Shown one piece after another: positions 5,251 through 33,804 of a stretch of 41,413 bases of DNA (position 1 is its first letter; each line of letters opens with the position of its first letter). The notes beneath the pieces are model-generated. The model saw nothing but the letters and a program-made list of their open reading frames with translations, was not told the DNA's origin and did no database searches. This DNA is from a virus. Its lineage: Duplodnaviria > Caudoviricetes. Where the stretch lies: IMG/VR virus record IMGVR_UViG_3300048598_000565, positions 1 through 41,413 of that record. One strand, given 5' to 3'. A program made the position numbers and the translations under genes.

Positions 5251-5997
5251 TCACGTCGAAGCGGGAGAGGATGGCGGCGGCAGATGCCGATCTACTTCCT
5301 CGCACCACTGTTTGTAGTCACGGTTCGATGGACACATGCCGCGCACGAACGATCGGCGCTGCTCGTACATTTCTTCCGGCGTCATGATGTGGTTGCGGGC
5401 GCGCTCGACCAAGGCGAGCAACTGCGGGTCTGTCGGTCCGCAACCAAGCGGCAAGGCAGATTCGGCCGTCACCGCTTCCGGCGCGGACAGCGGGTCTGAC
5501 GGGCCGTCTGCGGCGTCCACACATTGCTCGCATGTGCAGATAGCAGGAGCGCCGCCGTCAGATTTCGTTGCGCTCGCCGCGAGCGCTATGCTGAACCTCG
5601 CCCGAATATCTACCGGCGTGTAATCGCTGCGATCCGGCATGTCGTCGATGACTTCATCAATGAAAGACCGCAGCGCGCCTTCGCTGGTGGGTGCGGGGTG
5701 GGTGGTGCCACGGGCTGGATTCGAACCAGCTACCGACTGCTTACAAAACAGTTGCTCCGCCTGATGAGCTTCCGTGGCGTATTTGGTGTCCCCGGCAGGA
5801 TTCGAACCTGCATAATCTCCCGAGTTTAAGTCGGTTGCCTGTACCAATTCGGCTACGAGGACGCTATCGGTACTCACGGCCGGGCTTGAACCAGCATCTT
5901 TCCTGTTATGAGCAGGCGGCTCTACCAATTGAGCTACGTGAGAACAGTCGCCTTCTGCGAAATCGATCCATTCTGCCGGCGAGTGCTCGGGAAGCAT
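5251..5997 (-). CDS. Hypothetical ORF whose 5' part contains three tRNAs; only the 3' part looks conventionally protein-like
   Basis: Open for 248 codons and ends 8 nt before the next gene; true start unclear. Confidence 0.4.
   Translation of the reverse strand: MLPEHSPAEWIDFAEGDCSHVAQLVEPPAHNRKDAGSSPAVSTDSVLVAELVQATDLNSGDYAGSNPAGDTKYATEAHQAEQLFCKQSVAGSNPARGTTHPAPTSEGALRSFIDEVIDDMPDRSDYTPVDIRARFSIALAASATKSDGGAPAICTCEQCVDAADGPSDPLSAPEAVTAESALPLGCGPTDPQLLALVERARNHIMTPEEMYEQRRSFVRGMCPSNRDYKQWCEEVDRHLPPPSSPAST
5703..5778 (-). tRNA. tRNA-Thr(TGT)
   Basis: GCCACGG/CCGTGGC acceptor stem, ACTGT-TTTGTAA-GCAGT anticodon arm, GCTGG-TTCGAAT-CCAGC T arm, encoded CCA; A rather than T at position 8. Confidence 0.8.
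5784..5862 (-). tRNA. tRNA-Leu(TAA) with short variable region
   Basis: GTCCTCG/CGGGGAC acceptor, TAGCCGAATTGGTACAGGC D arm, CCGA-CTTAAAC-TCGG anticodon arm, GCAGG-TTCGAAT-CCTGC T arm, CCA end. Confidence 0.8.
5868..5943 (-). tRNA. tRNA with CAT anticodon (Met or Ile2), possibly degenerate
   Basis: TAGCTCAATTGGTAGAGC D arm, CCTG-CTCATAA-CAGG anticodon arm, GCTGG-TTCAAGC-CCGGC T arm; T1:T72 mismatch and ACCG end. Confidence 0.72.
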
Positions 5998-6879: not shown

Positions 6880-7980
6880 TTACTCCACTTCAACCGGCTC
6901 GCCATCGGCGGTGAGTGTGTAAAACGTGTCGGCCTTGATGCCGCGATCACCGACCTTCGCGGCAAAGATGTGCTTGATGGCCCACCCATTGTCAGGATCG
7001 CGATAGACCAAGACGATGGCGCCGGTTTGGGCGGCTTTGGCTCGGCCCTCGACACCGCTGGCGATTGCAATGGAGTGCTTGCCTTCAACGGTCGCGGCGC
7101 TCTGGTCGCCAGTGTTGGTCGCGGCGCTCTGGTCGCCGGTGTTGGTCGCGACGCTCTGGTCGCCGGTGTTGGTCGCGACGCTCCAATAGCCAGTGTTGGT
7201 CGCGGCGCTCTGGTCGCCAGTGTTGGTCGCGGCGCTCTGGTAGCCGGTGTTGGTCGCGACGCTCCGGGGGCCGGTGTTGGTCGCGGCGCTCTGGGGGCCG
7301 GTGTTGGTCGCGACGCTCCGGGGGCCGGTGTTGGTCGCGGCGCTCTGGGGGCCGGTGTTGGTCGCGGCGCTCTGGGGGCCGGTGTTGGTCGCGACGCTCT
7401 GGTCGCCGGTGTTGGTCGCGACGCTCTGGGGGCCAGTGTTGGTCGCGACGCTCCAATAGCCAGTGTTGGTCGCGGCGCTCTGGTCGCCAGTGTTGGTCGC
7501 GGCGCTCTGGGGGCCGGTGTTGGTCGCGACGCTCTGGTAGCCGGTGTTGGTCGCGACGCTCTGGGGGCCGGTGTTGGTCGCGACGCTCCGGGGGCCGGTG
7601 TTGGCTTCCATCTTCGTCGATACCACCTTGGACATCAGGTATTCGACGCCGCGAGAAATGAACTCAGGCAGGCTCAGTTCAGCCTTGATGATGATGGATG
7701 CCGACGCGACCTTGCTGTCTCCGTTGTGGCGCGACAGATCGCCGGACTGCTCAACGATGGCAAAGCGGGACGTGCCGGGGGGATAATAAGTCCACACGTC
7801 GAACGGGTTTTCGCAGGCATGAAAACCGTTTTCACAGGCCCTGATGGCGCCTTCGACCGTGTAGGTCTGACCAACCTCGAACTTATAGTTCCGGCAGGAC
7901 AGGGTATGATCAAACCCCTTGAACGAGGTGATGGCCTCCGTGGCCTGCAGCTCGGTCTTGGCTGATTCCTTGCGCGGCAT
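6880..7980 (-). CDS. First PL gene: DUF7666-like protein with 19 tandem 9-aa repeats
   Basis: N-terminal FKGFD..L.CRNYKFEVGQTY...CENGFHACENPFDVWTYY; repeats NTGxxS[AV]AT; C-terminal GIKADTFYTL. Confidence 0.85.
   Translation of the reverse strand: MPRKESAKTELQATEAITSFKGFDHTLSCRNYKFEVGQTYTVEGAIRACENGFHACENPFDVWTYYPPGTSRFAIVEQSGDLSRHNGDSKVASASIIIKAELSLPEFISRGVEYLMSKVVSTKMEANTGPRSVATNTGPQSVATNTGYQSVATNTGPQSAATNTGDQSAATNTGYWSVATNTGPQSVATNTGDQSVATNTGPQSAATNTGPQSAATNTGPRSVATNTGPQSAATNTGPRSVATNTGYQSAATNTGDQSAATNTGYWSVATNTGDQSVATNTGDQSAATNTGDQSAATVEGKHSIAIASGVEGRAKAAQTGAIVLVYRDPDNGWAIKHIFAAKVGDRGIKADTFYTLTADGEPVEVE
7090..7602 (-). repeat. 19 x 27-bp coding tandem repeat
   Basis: Unit encodes NTG-XX-S[AV]AT; XX = PR,PQ,YQ,PQ,DQ,YW,PQ,DQ,PQ,PQ,PR,PQ,PR,YQ,DQ,YW,DQ,DQ,DQ. 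Confidence 0.95.
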
Positions 7981-14609: not shown

Positions 14610-15733
14610 GCCGCTGGTTTCGCCTCTACGACGACACGATAAACGATCCGAAGATTCTTAAGCTGCCGGAAGTGCTCCGCTGGTATTGGATCGCACTGCT
14701 TTGCGTTGCGTCAAAGTGCGGCGGAAACCTACCGCCTCTTGATGACATCGCGATCCAACTTCGTGTTACGCAGGCCAAAGCCACAGAGGTCCTCGCATCA
14801 CTCGTAAAGGCCGGCCTGCTGGACAGGACTGAAACGGGATTTGTTCCTCACAACTGGCATGGCCGGCAGTATAAGTCGTCCGAAGACAAGCCGACCAAGG
14901 GTAAAGACAGTTATGTCTATTTCGTCGGCACTTCATGGGGATCGATGATAAAGATCGGCTTTTCAAAGAATCCGTGGGCGCGCCTAGTCAACATCCAAAC
15001 TTCTCACCATGAGAAAGTAGAAATTCTCGCTGCGTTTAGATGTAAATCTCACTCTGAAGTGGCACTCCACGACCTTTTAAAACCATACCGTAGGCAAGGC
15101 GAATGGTTCGATCTTCCGGCATCAGTGTCTGATGCAGCGAAGCGCTACGCTAATGATAGGAAAACCTACGAGGAGTTGGTAGTTGAGGTTACTACACTAC
15201 TACGTAGTGCTACAACAGAAACAGAAACAGAAACAGAAACAGAAACAGAAGCAGAAGCAGAAACAGATTCCGAAGCTATCGCTTCGGGTGCTGACGCACC
15301 GCGGAAGACCGCTGCAAGTCGGTTTGGCGAGTTCTGGGCGGCCTATCCACGCCGAGATGGTCCAAACCCGCGGAAGCCGGCAGAGCAACGCTTCGCATCG
15401 CTCGTCAAATCAGGCGTAGACCCTGGCATGATGATCGAGGCGGCGAAGAAACTGGCCGTGGATGAGGCGGCGCGTGGCAATGTCGGGACGCGGTTTATCC
15501 CGCAGGCCGTAACTTGGCTCAACCAGCAGCGCTGGGCCGATCATTCGGCCGTAGTTGAGCAGCAACAGCAGGCAGCGGCGGCTAGCCTCGCATCGAAAAT
15601 CCACGTCAAGGCCGACACACCGCAATGGCGGGCTTGGGCCGCATTTCTTGGCGAACCGCCGCCCCAGGACCGCAATTTTGGTTGGTACTTTGACAGCGAA
15701 TGGCCGCCTGACCACATGCGAGCGGCAGGCTAA
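14606..15733 (+). CDS. Phage replication initiator with inserted GIY-YIG/T5orf172-like domain
   Basis: MSRWFRLYDD..NDPK N-terminus; FWAAYPRR and FIPQAVTWLNQQRW C-terminal motifs; internal YVYFV...KIGFSKNPWARL...GEWF. Confidence 0.8.
   Translation: MSRWFRLYDDTINDPKILKLPEVLRWYWIALLCVASKCGGNLPPLDDIAIQLRVTQAKATEVLASLVKAGLLDRTETGFVPHNWHGRQYKSSEDKPTKGKDSYVYFVGTSWGSMIKIGFSKNPWARLVNIQTSHHEKVEILAAFRCKSHSEVALHDLLKPYRRQGEWFDLPASVSDAAKRYANDRKTYEELVVEVTTLLRSATTETETETETETEAEAETDSEAIASGADAPRKTAASRFGEFWAAYPRRDGPNPRKPAEQRFASLVKSGVDPGMMIEAAKKLAVDEAARGNVGTRFIPQAVTWLNQQRWADHSAVVEQQQQAAAASLASKIHVKADTPQWRAWAAFLGEPPPQDRNFGWYFDSEWPPDHMRAAG
15215..15262 (+). repeat. (ACAGAA)6(GCAGAA)2 coding microsatellite
   Basis: Encodes TETETETETETEAEAE linker. 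Confidence 0.9.
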
Positions 15734-21902: not shown

Positions 21903-23159
21903 ATGGCTACCAATACCACTCTTACGGCTGACATCATCGCCAAAGAGGCGCTGATGCATCTCGACAACGAATTGGTGTTCGCGAAACGCGTATATCGCGG
22001 ATACGAGAACGAGTTCTCCAAGAAGGTGAACGGATACGAAGTTGGCGAAACGATCTCGATCCGGCGCCCGACCGATTTCACGGTTCGCACCAACGCGGTC
22101 ATGGCGACCCAGGACGTGACCGAAGGCAAGGTCGCTCTGACGGTCGACCAGCGTCGCGGCGTTGACTTCGAGTTCACCTCTCAGGACCTCACCCTGAAGA
22201 TCAGTGAGCTCGGAGAGCGGGTGATCAAGCCCGCCATGATCCAACTCGCCAACTCGGTTGATACCTACCTGTCGGGCCTGTACGCCAGCGTCCCGAATTG
22301 GGTCGGAACGTCGACCAAGAAAATCGGCTCGTATGCCGATTTTGCGAAGGCGCCGGAACGCATGGACGAGATGGCGGTTCCGCAGGACACCCGGTCAGCG
22401 GTGCTGTCGCCGGCCGATCACTGGGCGCTGCTCGGCTCTCAGACCGAGTTGTACATCCAGGACGCGGCCAAGGGTGCCTATCGCAAGGGCTCGTTGGGTG
22501 AAATCGGCGGCGTGAACACGTTCATGTCGCAGAACATCCTGACCCACACGGCCGGAACGCGCACCAACGCGGCTATCGACCAGGCGCTTACCAGCGCGAC
22601 GACCGCCTACACATCGGTCAAGGATACGATGAAGCAGACCATCCACATGGATGGCCTCGGCACCAACAAGACGATCAAGAAGGGCGACGTGTTCACCATT
22701 GCCGACGTTTACGCGGTCAATCCAGTGACCAAAGCGCCGCTGCCATTCCTGAAGCAGTTCGTGGTCACGGCCGACGCCAATTCGGACGCGGTGACAACTG
22801 GTGACGCCGATATCGAGGTGTACCCGGCACTGATCTGGTCGGGGGCGTTCCAGAACGTCGCGGTTACGGCCGGCGTTACCGACCTGAATGACAAGACCGT
22901 AACGTGGCAGTCGGCGGCCGGCGCTCAGGATCGCCAGAACCTGGTGTTCCACAAGAACGCCTTTGCGCTGGTGATGGTGCCGTTGGTGTCGCCGCCCGGT
23001 GCCGTCGACGTGGGCCGCCAGTCTTACAAGGGCACGTCGGTTCGCGTCATCCCGGTCTATGACGGTACCAACGACGTGTCGAAGTGGCGTCTCGACATCC
23101 TGTTCGGCGGCAAAGCCATCGATCCGCGGCTCGCAACCCGCGTGAATGGCTCGGCATGA
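21903..23159 (+). CDS. P22-like major capsid protein
   Basis: GETISIRRP, VIKPAMIQLANSVD, NLVFHKNAFAL, WRLDILFG. Confidence 0.92.
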   Translation: MATNTTLTADIIAKEALMHLDNELVFAKRVYRGYENEFSKKVNGYEVGETISIRRPTDFTVRTNAVMATQDVTEGKVALTVDQRRGVDFEFTSQDLTLKISELGERVIKPAMIQLANSVDTYLSGLYASVPNWVGTSTKKIGSYADFAKAPERMDEMAVPQDTRSAVLSPADHWALLGSQTELYIQDAAKGAYRKGSLGEIGGVNTFMSQNILTHTAGTRTNAAIDQALTSATTAYTSVKDTMKQTIHMDGLGTNKTIKKGDVFTIADVYAVNPVTKAPLPFLKQFVVTADANSDAVTTGDADIEVYPALIWSGAFQNVAVTAGVTDLNDKTVTWQSAAGAQDRQNLVFHKNAFALVMVPLVSPPGAVDVGRQSYKGTSVRVIPVYDGTNDVSKWRLDILFGGKAIDPRLATRVNGSA

Positions 23160-29123: not shown

Positions 29124-30032
29124 TCAATCATTATCGCTTGTTGGTCGACTTACAACCATAGTTGTGCGACTAAAGTGCTCAACCAAAGCAACTAATTTTG
29201 TGTCCGGAACTGGACCGTCGCGATGGTCGATAGTGCGCAAGCCGAAAATGCGGTGGGAGCCATATTTGTTCGCACTATGGAAGGTAACCTTCTTCAAGCA
29301 AGGCCAGTATCGAGCAACGTGAGTATAGTCGAGGTATCCATGTTCTGGAATTGCCCCGCGCGGTGCAAGCTTTTCGCGGTATGAGTTGGTGTAGATAGCG
29401 CCAGAAACGATGTCGGCAATTTGCAGACCCGCGGTAAGTCCAGAATCGGCAAACATCGGTGCTTCAACGATACGTTTGAGCTGCTTCCCTTCCTCATTTC
29501 CAAATACAAAGCTCAAATAGCTAGTTGCTACAGTGTAATCGAGACCGGCCCCTTTCCTGGTATGGGCCATACGGGAATCAAGGATGAGAACGCCAGATGC
29601 ATTAGCCTCGCGAAGGAAAACATCGTAGCGCTCGGCAATAATCTGCAGTCCCTTCGTATATAAAGAGACTCTTGGCATCGGTTGCATTACGCTCTTTAGG
29701 AACGTCACGCCAATAATCTTGCCGCCAAAACTTTCGATCAGATCAAAAACCTTGTAGCAAAAAACCTTATTGCGCTCTGAGGCCGCGTTCCTTGGGGCAA
29801 AGAGATCGGTCCCTTTGATTTCCCAAACACTGTCGATTTTCTTGGATTGATCGATCTCGGACTTAAAAAATTGACGTTTGAGATAGAGATATGCGCGGTC
29901 GTACTCGCGCCATTTCTCGAACGGAAGAATAACGCCGCCCAAGGAAAAAATAGGTGTCTGTCCAACACCAACAGGAATTGTGTGGGGATTGGTGTTCCCT
30001 GTTTCGTCTAGATAGAGCGCCCACTGGACCAC
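29124..30032 (-). CDS. DUF3800 family protein (RNase H-like fold)
   Basis: N-terminal LYLDETG, central LILD, C-terminal DS...GLQIADIVSG; lower GC than flanks. Confidence 0.85.
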   Translation of the reverse strand: MVQWALYLDETGNTNPHTIPVGVGQTPIFSLGGVILPFEKWREYDRAYLYLKRQFFKSEIDQSKKIDSVWEIKGTDLFAPRNAASERNKVFCYKVFDLIESFGGKIIGVTFLKSVMQPMPRVSLYTKGLQIIAERYDVFLREANASGVLILDSRMAHTRKGAGLDYTVATSYLSFVFGNEEGKQLKRIVEAPMFADSGLTAGLQIADIVSGAIYTNSYREKLAPRGAIPEHGYLDYTHVARYWPCLKKVTFHSANKYGSHRIFGLRTIDHRDGPVPDTKLVALVEHFSRTTMVVSRPTSDND

Positions 30033-30046
30033 GGATACCGCCCTCT

Positions 30047-30142
30047 AAAGCACAGACGGCCCTCCGGTGAGGGAGAGCCGCCTTGATCGCCCACCATGAT
30101 CTTAATGATCAAACCGTCCTATCGGCCGGTAGGGTGAGCAAC
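30047..30142 (-). ncRNA. Structured RNA upstream of the DUF3800 gene (three-way junction plus terminator-like hairpin)
   Basis: P1 UUGCUCACC/GGUGGGCGA, P2 ACCGGCC-GAUA-GGACGGU, P3 UGAUC-AUUAA-GAUCA, then AGGCGGCUCUCC-CUCACC-GGAGGGCCGUCU-GUGCUUU. Confidence 0.7.
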
Positions 30143-30146
30143 AGAG

Positions 30147-30175
30147 AATCTAGTTCCGCCCGTTGCTGGGGTCAA
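30147..30175 (-). promoter_or_regulatory. Sigma70-type promoter for the ncRNA-DUF3800 unit
   Basis: TTGACC (30175-30170)-17 bp-TAGATT (30152-30147); predicted start at the 5' end of P1. Confidence 0.7.
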
Positions 30176-30337
30176 TGAGACAATAGACCCTCGCTGTTAA
30201 CGTTTCATAACAAAGGCGGTTCGAGGCACCACCTCTTAGTTTGTGTCAACGGCAATGGCACAAATGAGGTTCCTGGCCTTTTGTCGCGGCACATGGTGTC
30301 AAAGTAACCATCATCCTATGAGTGTTGTGTCACTTAT

Positions 30338-30571
30338 CTAAGCACCCGTTTTCTTTGAAGAAATCGGCAAAATGCCCATGTGCGTCAGCCAGTCGCGGAG
30401 CGCGTAGCGGATGGCTTCCGGGCGGGTAGGAACAGGGTCCTGATCCTCGCGCCACGTATCCAGCGCGGAAAGCTCGGGGTTATGGAGGCGGACGCCAACT
30501 AGCGTGCCTTTGCCAGTGGGCTTGGGGCCGCGTTTCTTCTTCTGTGTTAACACGGTTGTTGACTTCGCCAT
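30338..30571 (-). CDS. Ribbon-helix-helix (Arc/Mnt/CopG-like) regulator
   Basis: KKRGPKPTGKGTLVGVRLHNPELSALDTWR......TRPEAIRYAL. Confidence 0.75.
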   Translation of the reverse strand: MAKSTTVLTQKKKRGPKPTGKGTLVGVRLHNPELSALDTWREDQDPVPTRPEAIRYALRDWLTHMGILPISSKKTGA

Positions 30572-30653
30572 GAAACCTTGATAACACAAAAAGCAGGCCG
30601 GAAGGAAGCGCCAACTTCCTAACCGGCCCTAACCGCCACCACGGAGGTGACCC

Positions 30654-31238
30654 ATGGCGAAGGCTGCCGAAACCCATACCATCGAATCCTTGCCCACCCA
30701 AGGATTCGACAACCCGACATCCACGACGCGAAGAAGCTTTCTCGCTGCGGCTGCTGCGGGCGGCATTGCCGCTGCGGCGAGCCCGGCAGTCCCGGCTGAG
30801 GCAAGTGTGAATAGCGGTCCTAGCCCCGAGCTTGTCGAGCTGGGAGACAAACTGTTGAAGGCTCACGAAGCCTTCATTGAGGCGGACAACAAGCTCTTTG
30901 ACGCTTTTGAATTCATGCGGGAGTGGGATCGGGCCAATTCCGAGCCTTGCGCGCTCGATGCGGATGGAGACGTTGGACAGCGGCATCGGGATTGGATGGA
31001 GGCCCGCAAGGCCGCGCTAAAATCTTGCGACAAGCTCGCTCTGCATCGGCAACGTGACGCGGCCATTCAAGAGCACCGGGATTTCGTGAACGAGGTCGTC
31101 GACTTCCAAGCCAAGACGATCCATGACCTGATCCTGAAAGCTGAGCTTGCAATCGAGGCAGACACAGACGCTTGTCACATCGCCTCATCGGTCGCTGAGG
31201 ACCTCCTTGAGATGGCGGCGGCTAAGGTCATCGCCTGA
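30654..31238 (+). CDS. Hypothetical protein with twin-arginine-like segment
   Basis: TTRRSFLAAAAAGGIAAA; GGAGG RBS; divergent from the RHH gene. Confidence 0.7.
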   Translation: MAKAAETHTIESLPTQGFDNPTSTTRRSFLAAAAAGGIAAAASPAVPAEASVNSGPSPELVELGDKLLKAHEAFIEADNKLFDAFEFMREWDRANSEPCALDADGDVGQRHRDWMEARKAALKSCDKLALHRQRDAAIQEHRDFVNEVVDFQAKTIHDLILKAELAIEADTDACHIASSVAEDLLEMAAAKVIA

Positions 31239-31376
31239 ACTTCTGAACATCTGAGCTTCCGCCTCTGGCAGGGCGGATCAAGGCGCGAAACTTTGGAGCT
31301 TCATTGGCCCCGGTTTCGTGAATACGAACCCTTGCGCCTAGGGCCTGCCAGGGCCGGGCGCCAATGGAGACTGGAA

Positions 31377-31964
31377 ATGTTGGAAAAGGTCGGAATTGAA
31401 GTCCCGAAACTGAACCTCGCCACGGTCGAAGTTCTTTTGATCGGGGATAGCCCGCTCATCGTCCATGCATGGTCGAACAAAGCCAAGGAAATGATGCTGG
31501 CGAAGCAGATGAAGAAGGCCAAGCAGGCCAAGGAAGCAAAGGACCCGGAGCGCGACTATCAGGAGTCGCTTTATCCGGTGATTGACGGATCGCACACGTT
31601 CCCGGCGGTCGGGTTCAAGGCGGCGATGGTGTCGGCCTGCCGGTTCGTCGAAAACATGAAGATGACGAGCGCGCGAGGCGCATTCCACATCCTCGGGGAA
31701 TACATCAAAATTCAGGGCGAGCCCTCGCGTCGTGAAGACATGGTGCGTGTCGGCATGGGAACGGCCGACATTCGCTATCGTGCCGAGTTCAAGACGTGGA
31801 AAGCGCTTCTCACTATCTCGTACAATCAGAGCGCCATCAGCGCGGAACAGATCATCAACCTTCTGAACGTCGCCGGATTTGGCGTCGGCGTCGGGGAATG
31901 GCGTCCCGAACGTGATGGTTCCTACGGCCGTTTTCACGTCGCAACCGAGAAGGAGGCGGCGTGA
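31377..31964 (+). CDS. Solo RAMP / Cas7-like protein (195 aa)
   Basis: N-terminal strand VLLIGDSPLIVH, FPAVGFKAAMVSA helix, C-terminal glycine-rich loop AGFGVGVGEWRPERDGSYGRFHV; GGAG RBS. Confidence 0.75.
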   Translation: MLEKVGIEVPKLNLATVEVLLIGDSPLIVHAWSNKAKEMMLAKQMKKAKQAKEAKDPERDYQESLYPVIDGSHTFPAVGFKAAMVSACRFVENMKMTSARGAFHILGEYIKIQGEPSRREDMVRVGMGTADIRYRAEFKTWKALLTISYNQSAISAEQIINLLNVAGFGVGVGEWRPERDGSYGRFHVATEKEAA

Positions 31965-32470
31965 TGCAGATCACCAAATACGAGTTTAAGGACGGCTGTC
32001 GTCTTCAATCCGGCGCGAAGCTCGATTCCGCTAACGAGGTCGGCCAGCACCTTGAGCGGCTTCGCGAGAAGTTCAAGGGCGAGCTTACGCCAGAGGATGT
32101 TGTGGCGGATGCCGAGAACCACAACTCGCCGCTTCACTCGTTCTTTGAATGGGACGATTCGGAAGCGGCGCAGCAGTGGCGATTGCAACAGGCGCGCGGA
32201 TTGATCCGTTCGGTTGTCGCGATCGTCATCAATCAGGACGAGCCGGTAAAGCGGGTGCAGGCGTTCGTGCATGTACCGGAGCCGGGCGCCCCGCACTATC
32301 GCGCGACCGATCATGCCATGTCGCAGGAAAGGACGCGCGAGCTGGTCTTGCGTCAGGCCTGGAAGGAATTTCAGGCGTGGCGTAAGCGATATGAGCACTT
32401 GGAGGAGTTGGCTGATTTCTTCTCGCGAGCGGATCGTGAGTTGAAGCGTATTCCGCAGATGCATGACTAG
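31961..32470 (+). CDS. Conserved phage protein coupled to the RAMP gene
   Basis: GTGA overlap with GGAGG RBS; LTPEDVVADAENHNSPLHSFFEWDDSEAAQQWRLQQARGLIRSV motif. Confidence 0.8.
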   Translation: MMQITKYEFKDGCRLQSGAKLDSANEVGQHLERLREKFKGELTPEDVVADAENHNSPLHSFFEWDDSEAAQQWRLQQARGLIRSVVAIVINQDEPVKRVQAFVHVPEPGAPHYRATDHAMSQERTRELVLRQAWKEFQAWRKRYEHLEELADFFSRADRELKRIPQMHD

Positions 32471-32729
32471 GCAGGCATGGTAGGGCTGTGCATGGCATGG
32501 CTAGGCGCGGTCCGGCATGGCAGGCAAGGCAAGTTCTGGCGTGGCTTGTCGCGGCAAGGCTAGTTGTGGCCAGGCATGGCAGGCAAGGCGAGGCGAGGCG
32601 CGGAATGGCGGAGCAAGGCTAGTCGGGGCATGGCCGGCGGGGCTAGGCGACGCAAGTCATGTCGAGGAATGGCACGGCAGTCGAGGTTAGGCTAGGCGCG
32701 GCGCGTTGTGTCGTGTCAAGGTAAGACTA
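32470..32729 (+). ncRNA. Non-coding (GGY-NN)n pentamer array in five units; candidate guide-RNA array
   Basis: 48 pentamers (32 GGY, 10 GTY, 6 other triplets), each with a variable dinucleotide; units open with GGCA/GGCC at 32470, 32519, 32578, 32632, 32676. Confidence 0.8.
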
Positions 32730-32731
32730 GG

Positions 32732-32762
32732 AAGGGGTCACTTCGGTGGCCCCTTTTCTTTT
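32732..32762 (+). terminator. Intrinsic terminator closing the RAMP-partner-array unit
   Basis: AAGGGGTCAC-TTCG-GTGGCCCCTT-TTCTTTT. Confidence 0.88.
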
Positions 32763-32775
32763 GAGGAAACACGAA

Positions 32776-33804
32776 ATGCTGAAACGTTTCAGCCTCGCGC
32801 TTGCGGGGCTTTTTGCATTTGTGGGCATGGCAGGCGCGGCCGGAACGCTTCCCGGCTTCTCGCTTGCGACGCAGTTCGACAATCGCGGCGAGCTGGCGCG
32901 CGGGTGCAAGCTCTACATTATACAGGCTGGTACGGTCTCGACGCCGCAGGACTCGTTTCAGGACAGTGACCTGTCCATCAAGAACCCGAACCCGCTGAGC
33001 TGCGACGCAGGCGGAAGGCTCCCGCAGTTCTTTCTGGCGGATGGTCAGATCAAGGTCCGCCTGGTCGATAATGTCGGTGTCCAGATTTTTTCGCAGGATA
33101 ACCTGCTGGTGGTCGGGCCGTCATCTGGCGGTGGCGGTGGCGGTGGCGGCGTCGATCCAACTACGGTGTTCCAGACCGGGGACGTGCTTTGGTCCGAAAC
33201 AGCCGGTCCTCGTGTAGGATGGGTGCGGGACAACGGCCGCACGATCGGTAGCGCGTCGAGCGGGGCAACGGAGCGCGCCAATGCTGATGTCGAAGCGCTG
33301 TTCGGCTGGCTCTGGCAGAACTGCGACGATACCAAGTGCCCCGTTGCCGGCGGCCGCGGCGTATCGTCTTCGGCGGATTGGGCCGCCAACAAAACGATCG
33401 CGACGCCTGATAAGCGTGGCTACATCATTGGCGGCCTCGACGACATGGGCAACAGCGCGGCCGGACGGTTCGCGGGCGTGCCCGTGGTTTCGGGAAGCGT
33501 TACGACGGCCGGCAGCGTGATCGGTGAGGCGCTGCATACTTTGGCCACGGATGAGATTCCGGCGCACACTCACGCCAACACGCTTACCGATCCGGGGCAC
33601 GTGCACGTCTACAATAGATATTCACAGTTGGTTTCTCTTGGAACAACGGTGACTGGATCGGGGAGTTTTTGGCTGGGCGTTGGCGACGCGGCGACCGACA
33701 CCAGAACGACCGGAATTACGATCACCAACGCATCGACCGGTGGAGGTGGCGCGCACAACAACGTGCAGAAAACCGTACTCGGCACCTTCTATAGGAAGCT
33801 CTGA
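32776..33804 (+). CDS. Tail fibre/collar-like protein with signal-peptide-like N-terminus
   Basis: GWVRDNGRTIG...LFGWLW...PDKRG collar-like motifs; HTLATDEIPAHTH, GGGGAHNNVQ; GAGG RBS. Confidence 0.75.
   Translation: MLKRFSLALAGLFAFVGMAGAAGTLPGFSLATQFDNRGELARGCKLYIIQAGTVSTPQDSFQDSDLSIKNPNPLSCDAGGRLPQFFLADGQIKVRLVDNVGVQIFSQDNLLVVGPSSGGGGGGGGVDPTTVFQTGDVLWSETAGPRVGWVRDNGRTIGSASSGATERANADVEALFGWLWQNCDDTKCPVAGGRGVSSSADWAANKTIATPDKRGYIIGGLDDMGNSAAGRFAGVPVVSGSVTTAGSVIGEALHTLATDEIPAHTHANTLTDPGHVHVYNRYSQLVSLGTTVTGSGSFWLGVGDAATDTRTTGITITNASTGGGGAHNNVQKTVLGTFYRKL

Follow-up and report, generated by a model that had tools for sequence, protein, structure and literature searches.

VIPR is a CRISPR-related gene silencer in which the protein Vipr is associated with guides made of GGY triplets and NN dinucleotides, and these guides read two DNA bases and skip the third (bioRxiv 10.64898/2026.04.26.720920). 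In the available part of the structural work on SUSP1, one protomer was found per pentamer, with an R-loop triplex on double-stranded DNA, and assembly of the filament seems to proceed from a structured tail at the 3' end of the guide (10.64898/2026.04.26.720927). The guides of type II VIPR are discrete RNAs of about 100 nt, and the published SUSP1 guides mostly match satellites (10.64898/2026.04.26.720920). As far as the accessible portions of the reports go, VIPR was shown in published assays to silence competitors (10.64898/2026.04.26.720920; 10.64898/2026.10.15.759431). Another layout, the staggered array, is presented in the legend of fig. S18 (10.64898/2026.04.26.720920), the available part of which describes individual processed vrRNAs from positions that overlap by 1 nt. 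Small-RNA sequencing in the same report confirmed the ribozyme and single-guide layouts, the staggered layout being absent from this confirmation. For the staggered layout its text reports neither targets nor RNA data, and no turnover of units; such loci or targets may be listed in its tables and Data S1-S4. The related preprints consulted named no targets of staggered arrays in their text either, and the available portion of report 760802 makes no mention of such arrays.

The window considered here, that is, the whole stretch of DNA analysed, comprises the 41,413 nucleotides of IMG/VR record IMGVR_UViG_3300048598_000565. It represents a temperate P22-like phage with an integrase, a CI-like repressor, a terminase, a portal, a PF11651 coat, and ejection and tail genes. 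No cas gene was found among 56 window ORFs scanned against PHROGs. A sample of 301 genomes of the class of G001 contained no close relative of the integrase, and one of 401 contained none of the coat gene. A repetitive tract at 32470-32729 was parsed anew, and the 5 units, the 48 pentamers and all the NN lists of the preliminary description were reproduced in full. The lengths of the units (49, 59, 54, 44 and 54 nt), their lead-ins (GGCA four times, GGCC once) and the count of G[GT]Y triplets (42/48) also agreed with that account; the six remaining triplets are TGC, GGA, AGC, CGC, GGA and GAC. Four internal 4-nt steps split the array into its five units (Table 1), neighbouring guides being offset by 1 nt. 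The 1-nt overlap named in the available part of the fig. S18 legend amounts to such a 4-nt step, so the array corresponds to a staggered vrRNA array. Judged by its sequence, it is thus a VIPR array of a kind and layout already published and, taken alone, ordinary for VIPR.

Table 1. Features of the array, its cassette and the homologous coat-gene site, in window positions.
Feature	Position	Strand	Description
Own coat site (homologue of the predicted unit 2 target)	21966..21998	+	15/22 only
Optional cassette	30643..32767	+	ORF 30654-31238, vipr, vap, array, terminator; missing from co-occurring siblings
vipr	31377..31964	+	195 aa, RAMP (Cas7-like); predicted to polymerise on guides
Candidate vap	31964..32470	+	168 aa; winged-helix-like N-terminal part and helical hairpin
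Unit 1	32470..32518	+	GGCA + 9 pentamers; target search empty
Unit 2	32519..32577	+	GGCA + 11 pentamers; predicted target, sibling coat codons 24-34, 18/22
Unit 3	32578..32631	+	GGCA + 10 pentamers; target search empty
Unit 4	32632..32675	+	GGCC + 8 pentamers; HTH gene of sibling L235 as a weak target candidate (14/16)
Unit 5	32676..32729	+	GGCA + 10 pentamers; target search empty
Terminator-like hairpin closing the array	32731..32762	+	11-bp stem, UUCG loop, U run; seen in sequence

Pairs of G[GT]Y triplets at a lag of 5 nt occur 36 times in the array, against a mean of 3.5 and a maximum of 11 in 5,000 dinucleotide-preserving shuffles. The second-best 260-nt stretch of the window scored 9, which leaves the array as the sole such tract there. 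Three contigs assembled separately in one sludge study (X1-X3) showed 0 differences across the array, and judging by them there is no sign of an assembly artefact; since that study is possibly the source study, they are not independent support for the occurrence of the array. No coverage of the array was found in runs X5-X8 or in the one RNA run listed. The junction had been proposed to read GGCAT-GGCA-GGC. GGCA followed by G is indeed conserved in relatives, and the longer motif proved particular to this array, AT standing before 23% of 199 junctions. The closing hairpin is present in the MFE and centroid folds alike, and the consensus terminator scanner made no call on it. It is the single terminator of the array: the units abut directly, with no tail, hairpin or ribozyme between them, and the structured 3' tail of about 40 nt that each type II guide carries was not found. 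No Rfam family reached threshold in 30000-33000, and no CRISPR repeat family was detected there. A folding z of -3.1 for the array was set aside as evidence of guide structure because the folded stretch included the terminator.

The array follows vipr and the candidate vap. The product of vipr corresponds to the description of Vipr as a stand-alone RAMP with an RRM core, a thumb and a glycine-rich loop. It was matched to SUSP1 Vipr (PDB 36pp) with E 2.8e-5 as a single sequence and 1.9e-7 as a profile, the match being limited to about 65 C-terminal residues of the 195-aa protein. The predicted model (pLDDT 85.7) was matched by chains of Csm3/Cas7 type with a best E of 5.5e-6. In the available part of the structural report, GGY is contacted in SUSP1 Vipr by R138, D177, W178 and R179 (10.64898/2026.04.26.720927). 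These align with R135, E174, W175 and R176 of the window protein, G-loop and thumb residues that are invariant across 57 Vipr homologues. The start of the candidate vap overlaps the stop of vipr, and its stop overlaps the first GGCA of the array. The encoded protein (phrog_15946; model pLDDT 89.8) has 598 homologues, the named sources of which are Xanthobacter, Labrys and Mesorhizobium. A coupled conserved gene is present, with a weak likeness to winged-helix chains (VIA Z <= 5.7) and zero Foldseek matches for its model at E<=0.001. Pfam gave no match for Vipr or the vap protein, and the Atlas search returned only unnamed viral clusters. The non-coding tract with its fixed GGY and variable NN, in a viral or proviral context without CRISPR array or cas operon, corresponds to VIPR, and the direct repeats with contiguous spacers and the cas genes of CRISPR-Cas were not found in the window.

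In contigs from 4/4 runs of one study, position 30642 is joined to 32768 with 8 other letters between, which implies that siblings without the cassette co-occur. The cassette contains no nuclease gene. In the sibling L235, its region is occupied by an antirepressor (PF03374) and a DUF4258/HTH pair. Several further elements were observed around it. The cassette ORF 30654-31238 encodes 194 aa with a twin-arginine-signal-like N-terminus (Pfam matches sub-threshold). Upstream of the cassette, in the interval 30338-30640, the small divergent ORF 30338-30571 (-) resembles by eye a small DNA-binding repressor; it had no Pfam or PHROG match, and hence none pointing to control of Arc/Mnt type. From the 3' end of this ORF, 59 bp recur in L235. 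A DUF3800 gene (29124-30032, -; E 2.6e-13) lies in an AT-richer-looking accessory slot, in which L235 carries a DUF4258/HTH toxin-antitoxin-like pair. Elsewhere in the window, a 27-bp coding repeat is present 19 times at 7090-7604 within ORF 6880-7980, and (AACAGA) x 9 is found at 15214-15267 within the replication initiator gene.

Arrays are carried by 46/53 vipr-homologue loci, 44 of them with the GGCA junction. In 53 distinct related arrays, 234 of the 240 phase shifts measure 4 nt and 200 of the 240 read GGCA, and the number of pentamers per internal unit peaks at 8-11. The preliminary description had predicted fixed triplets and divergent NN in relatives, and the triplet entropy was 1.79 of 6 bits as against 3.91 of 4 bits for mid-unit NN. 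The gain and loss of whole units that it had also foreseen was observed as well: exactly one GGCA-bounded unit of BobaPhett is missing from ByChance, and the Donkeykong array holds two whole units beyond Brocalys. The comparison with related phages thus did not refute that description. In addition, slippage-like events were found, namely the loss of one pentamer in Saal with the phase kept and short duplicated units in relatives.

Cultured actinophages with vipr and staggered arrays (L048-L053, L194-L198) are the Mycobacterium phages Brocalys, Donkeykong, Mattes, Saal, Quico, ByChance and BobaPhett and the Gordonia phages UmaThurman, Pipp, Ecliptus and ODay; phage records matching Vipr number 34. 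Several actinophage arrays are annotated as a hypothetical CDS or overrun by an extended gene start. One 11-pentamer unit (L048 2685-2743; L051, L053, L194-L197) recurs almost without change in each of the seven parsed mycobacteriophage arrays, and this near constancy suggests a persistent target; its 30 matches in IMG/VR, the best at 20/22, were not convincing. Other arrangements were also seen. In L004 a distinct short array lies on the other strand (-, near 5316), L005 and L031 (5171-6115) have very long arrays of about 16-21 units, and L037 has three arrays with repeated sequence at their flanks. For the full-length vipr homologues of L041, L043, L011, L029 and L045, no GGY array was parsed within the fetched flanks, and these loci may rely on a different repeat or on an array farther away.

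The skip-1 code was examined in these relatives by scanning 31 actinophage units on both strands against 658 kb, which comprised the complete or almost complete genomes of six other phages and seven flanking loci. For four of the 31 units the score exceeded that of each of 40 shuffles, and this held for skip 1 alone. Two matches are perfect, that of Pipp unit 4 in Utz gene 40 (20/20) and that of ODay unit 3 in the tape measure gene of Birdsong (18/18), where ODay unit 1 (18/20) and Ecliptus unit 4 (15/18) also match. All four units skip codon position 3, the wobble base, and at offsets 0-4 none of the matches (0/4) extends beyond the junction into the following unit. At the homologous sites, the tape measure gene of ODay itself reaches 13/18 and 15/20; the best self match of the Pipp unit is 13/20. 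The other 27/31 units, all 14 mycobacteriophage units among them, had no target in the scanned 658 kb, and no skip-1 excess over controls was found for 172 related units on P22-like loci or 209 on vipr loci. Since units are tied to natural targets, the unit boundaries are fixed. The earlier suggestion that units are separate guides is supported by whole-unit turnover, by single-unit matches that end at a junction and by conserved triplets beside near-random NN. An attempt by eye to tie variant triplets to the skipped base in three matched units gave no consistent link. The ODay cassette (L198/L242 2344-3609) lies directly upstream of its own tape measure gene; the two ODay guides match that of the sibling Birdsong at L232 7096-7122 and 10648-10677, and amino-acid changes are present at the unit-3 site in the ODay allele.

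The matches between sibling actinophages suggested close kin, and 80 coat-gene loci were therefore examined for the units of the window. Unit 2 matches the sibling coat gene in codon frame, with its first 7 NN perfect (14/14) and its four mismatches all within the last four pentamers. A score of 18 was obtained with 11/79 loci overall and, among the 11 closest loci listed, with 8; the ceiling among 120 coat homologues was 19/22. On 14 loci, shuffled versions of unit 2 reached 18 in 10/1,500 cases for order and 5/1,500 for bases (p 0.003-0.007), which over five units becomes a p of about 0.02-0.03. The own coat gene was compared with the consensus of 12 close siblings at codon positions 1-2, the start codon being excluded. 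It carries 15 private differences, 3 of which fall within the 11/419 codons of the unit 2 site (binomial p 0.006). These three changes, Asn to Glu, a first-position synonymous Leu and Gln to Arg, each lower the match.

The match of unit 4 is in frame and not significant (shuffle p 0.065). Units 1, 3 and 5 had no target on coat-gene loci and gave 0/48 each in related virus records (<=3 mismatches). Exact gapped scans of IMG/VR returned 0 matches for unit 2 at 20 bases and, for units 3, 2 and 5 at 16 bases, 98, 16 and 9 matches, none of them full-length. The best IMG/VR match, 21/22, lies in L152, which is AT-rich; codon position 2 is skipped there, and the match was attributed to chance. In addition, 17 matches of unit 2 in a metagenome scan (best 20/22, all at GC 0.29-0.49) were rejected. 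The best self matches of units 1-5 under skip 1 are 13/18, 15/22, 15/20, 12/16 and 15/20, and no unit has a self-target of at least 80% in the window. Of the five units, one has a candidate non-self skip-1 target at 18/22 with supporting self-divergence, one has a weak candidate and three have none.

The five-unit staggered array, with vipr and the candidate vap, very probably gives five guide RNAs that are predicted to silence genes of close kin, the coat gene being the likely target of unit 2. Following the available part of the SUSP1 structures, each GGY would be held by one Vipr protomer and NN presented, such that a pentamer would read two DNA bases and skip the third, normally the wobble base. 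The array presumably forms the 3' end of the vipr-vap transcript, as no promoter-like site lies between and a terminator comes after. Because the GGCA step is 4 nt long, it interrupts the register of 5 nt; a filament should not be able to run through, and every unit would be its own 16-22-base address. Most likely, the exposed junction would then be cut or trimmed to yield tail-less guides of about 44-59 nt. Binding probably blocks transcription, since there is no nuclease gene in the cassette. Sibling coat genes would be repressed during co-infection or induction, and the phage would escape its own unit 2 via the read-position changes in its coat gene. Against this explanation count the empty target searches for three of the five window units, the non-significant match of unit 4, the incomplete match of unit 2, the 27 actinophage units that matched nothing, the missing skip-1 excess among the 172 and 209 related units and the restriction of the SUSP1 Vipr match to about 65 C-terminal residues. 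So does the structured 3' tail of the SUSP1 filament, as described in the accessible part of that work, which the window units lack.

The same missing tail can be read in another way. With neither hairpin nor ribozyme between the units, no Rfam family at threshold and no nuclease gene in the cassette, the array of this VIPR system could be one uncut RNA, a multi-address guide in which the GGCA steps would be hinges between successive Vipr filaments. Target matches ending at junctions fit equally with this, and the published sequencing, which confirmed ribozyme and single-guide layouts only, is also in its favour. We nevertheless consider an uncut RNA rather unlikely, as type II guides are discrete RNAs and the fig. 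S18 legend, in its available part, names individual processed vrRNAs, on a basis that is not stated there.

Another doubt concerns unit 2, since 18/22 is an incomplete match with a modest p value once five units are counted, the scans left out the host and its resident elements, and published SUSP1 guides are mostly directed against satellites. The units might thus be guides and unit 2 really target a satellite, an unrelated prophage or a host gene, the coat match being due to chance. This seems improbable to us, though to be taken seriously, because the match is codon-aligned with a perfect 14/14 run, a separate excess of private read-position changes was found in the own coat exactly there, and ODay versus Birdsong shows a like pattern. 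Finally, the slippage-like events of Saal and of the short duplicated units are what a decayed microsatellite, or a DNA-level protein-binding array with no RNA role, might leave behind. Such an origin is scarcely credible in view of the near-maximal NN entropy beside fixed triplets and of the strict linkage to vipr, and it is contradicted by the 20/20 and 18/18 skip-1 matches to other phages.

With guide RNAs retained as the preferred reading, what is added here to a known class is that natural targets could be assigned to single units of staggered arrays, including two perfect matches in cultured Gordonia phages. More tentatively, and as something possible rather than probable, staggered VIPR arrays may be kin-exclusion cassettes in which a register slip of one base suffices to define tail-less guides, whole units are swapped at GGCA, essential virion genes of the nearest kin (coat, tape measure) are the targets and the own allele is recoded at the read positions. 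If so, the cassette would form a pair of a killer and a resistant allele that drives local divergence of structural genes. The release of tail-less guides, the entry of new guides and the use of VIPR against own kin can now be tested. With its five addresses packed into 260 nt, the array would moreover be a highly compact format for multiplex guides.

Among known systems, the closest is the published staggered VIPR (720920, fig. S18), which shares with the window a prophage operon of two genes, vipr and (in the window, as a candidate) vap, GGY/NN pentamers and back-to-back, tail-less guides offset by 1 nt; within the available part of that source, no difference in architecture was found. As far as the accessible descriptions of type II VIPR go (coliphage SUSP1, P. 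fulva prophage), it has in common with the window a homologous Vipr in which the thumb and G-loop residues are conserved; its DNA-binding-type accessory protein, its 1-nt-skip code in which the wobble base is skipped, and its targets in competing elements have candidate or predicted counterparts in the window. In contrast, type II guides form individual RNAs of about 100 nt that all carry a structured tail at the 3' end, whereas the window units abut via GGCA before a single terminator. Unlike type II, according to the same descriptions, the window array contains about 15% GTY triplets (7+ of 48), and it is predicted to target a virion gene of closely related phages instead of a satellite or a lysis-lysogeny regulator. 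The Cas7/Csm3 backbone of class 1 CRISPR resembles Vipr in its RAMP fold and in forming an oligomer on a guide RNA, but the window has neither a repeat-spacer array nor a cas gene, and its code is non-contiguous. As for its position, the cassette region lies in what we take to be the counterpart of the P22 immI/ant slot, an optional module that is flanked by the genes for ejection proteins and tail and includes a small divergent gene. In the sibling L235 an antirepressor sits in this region, whereas the payload in the window would be an RNA-guided silencer.
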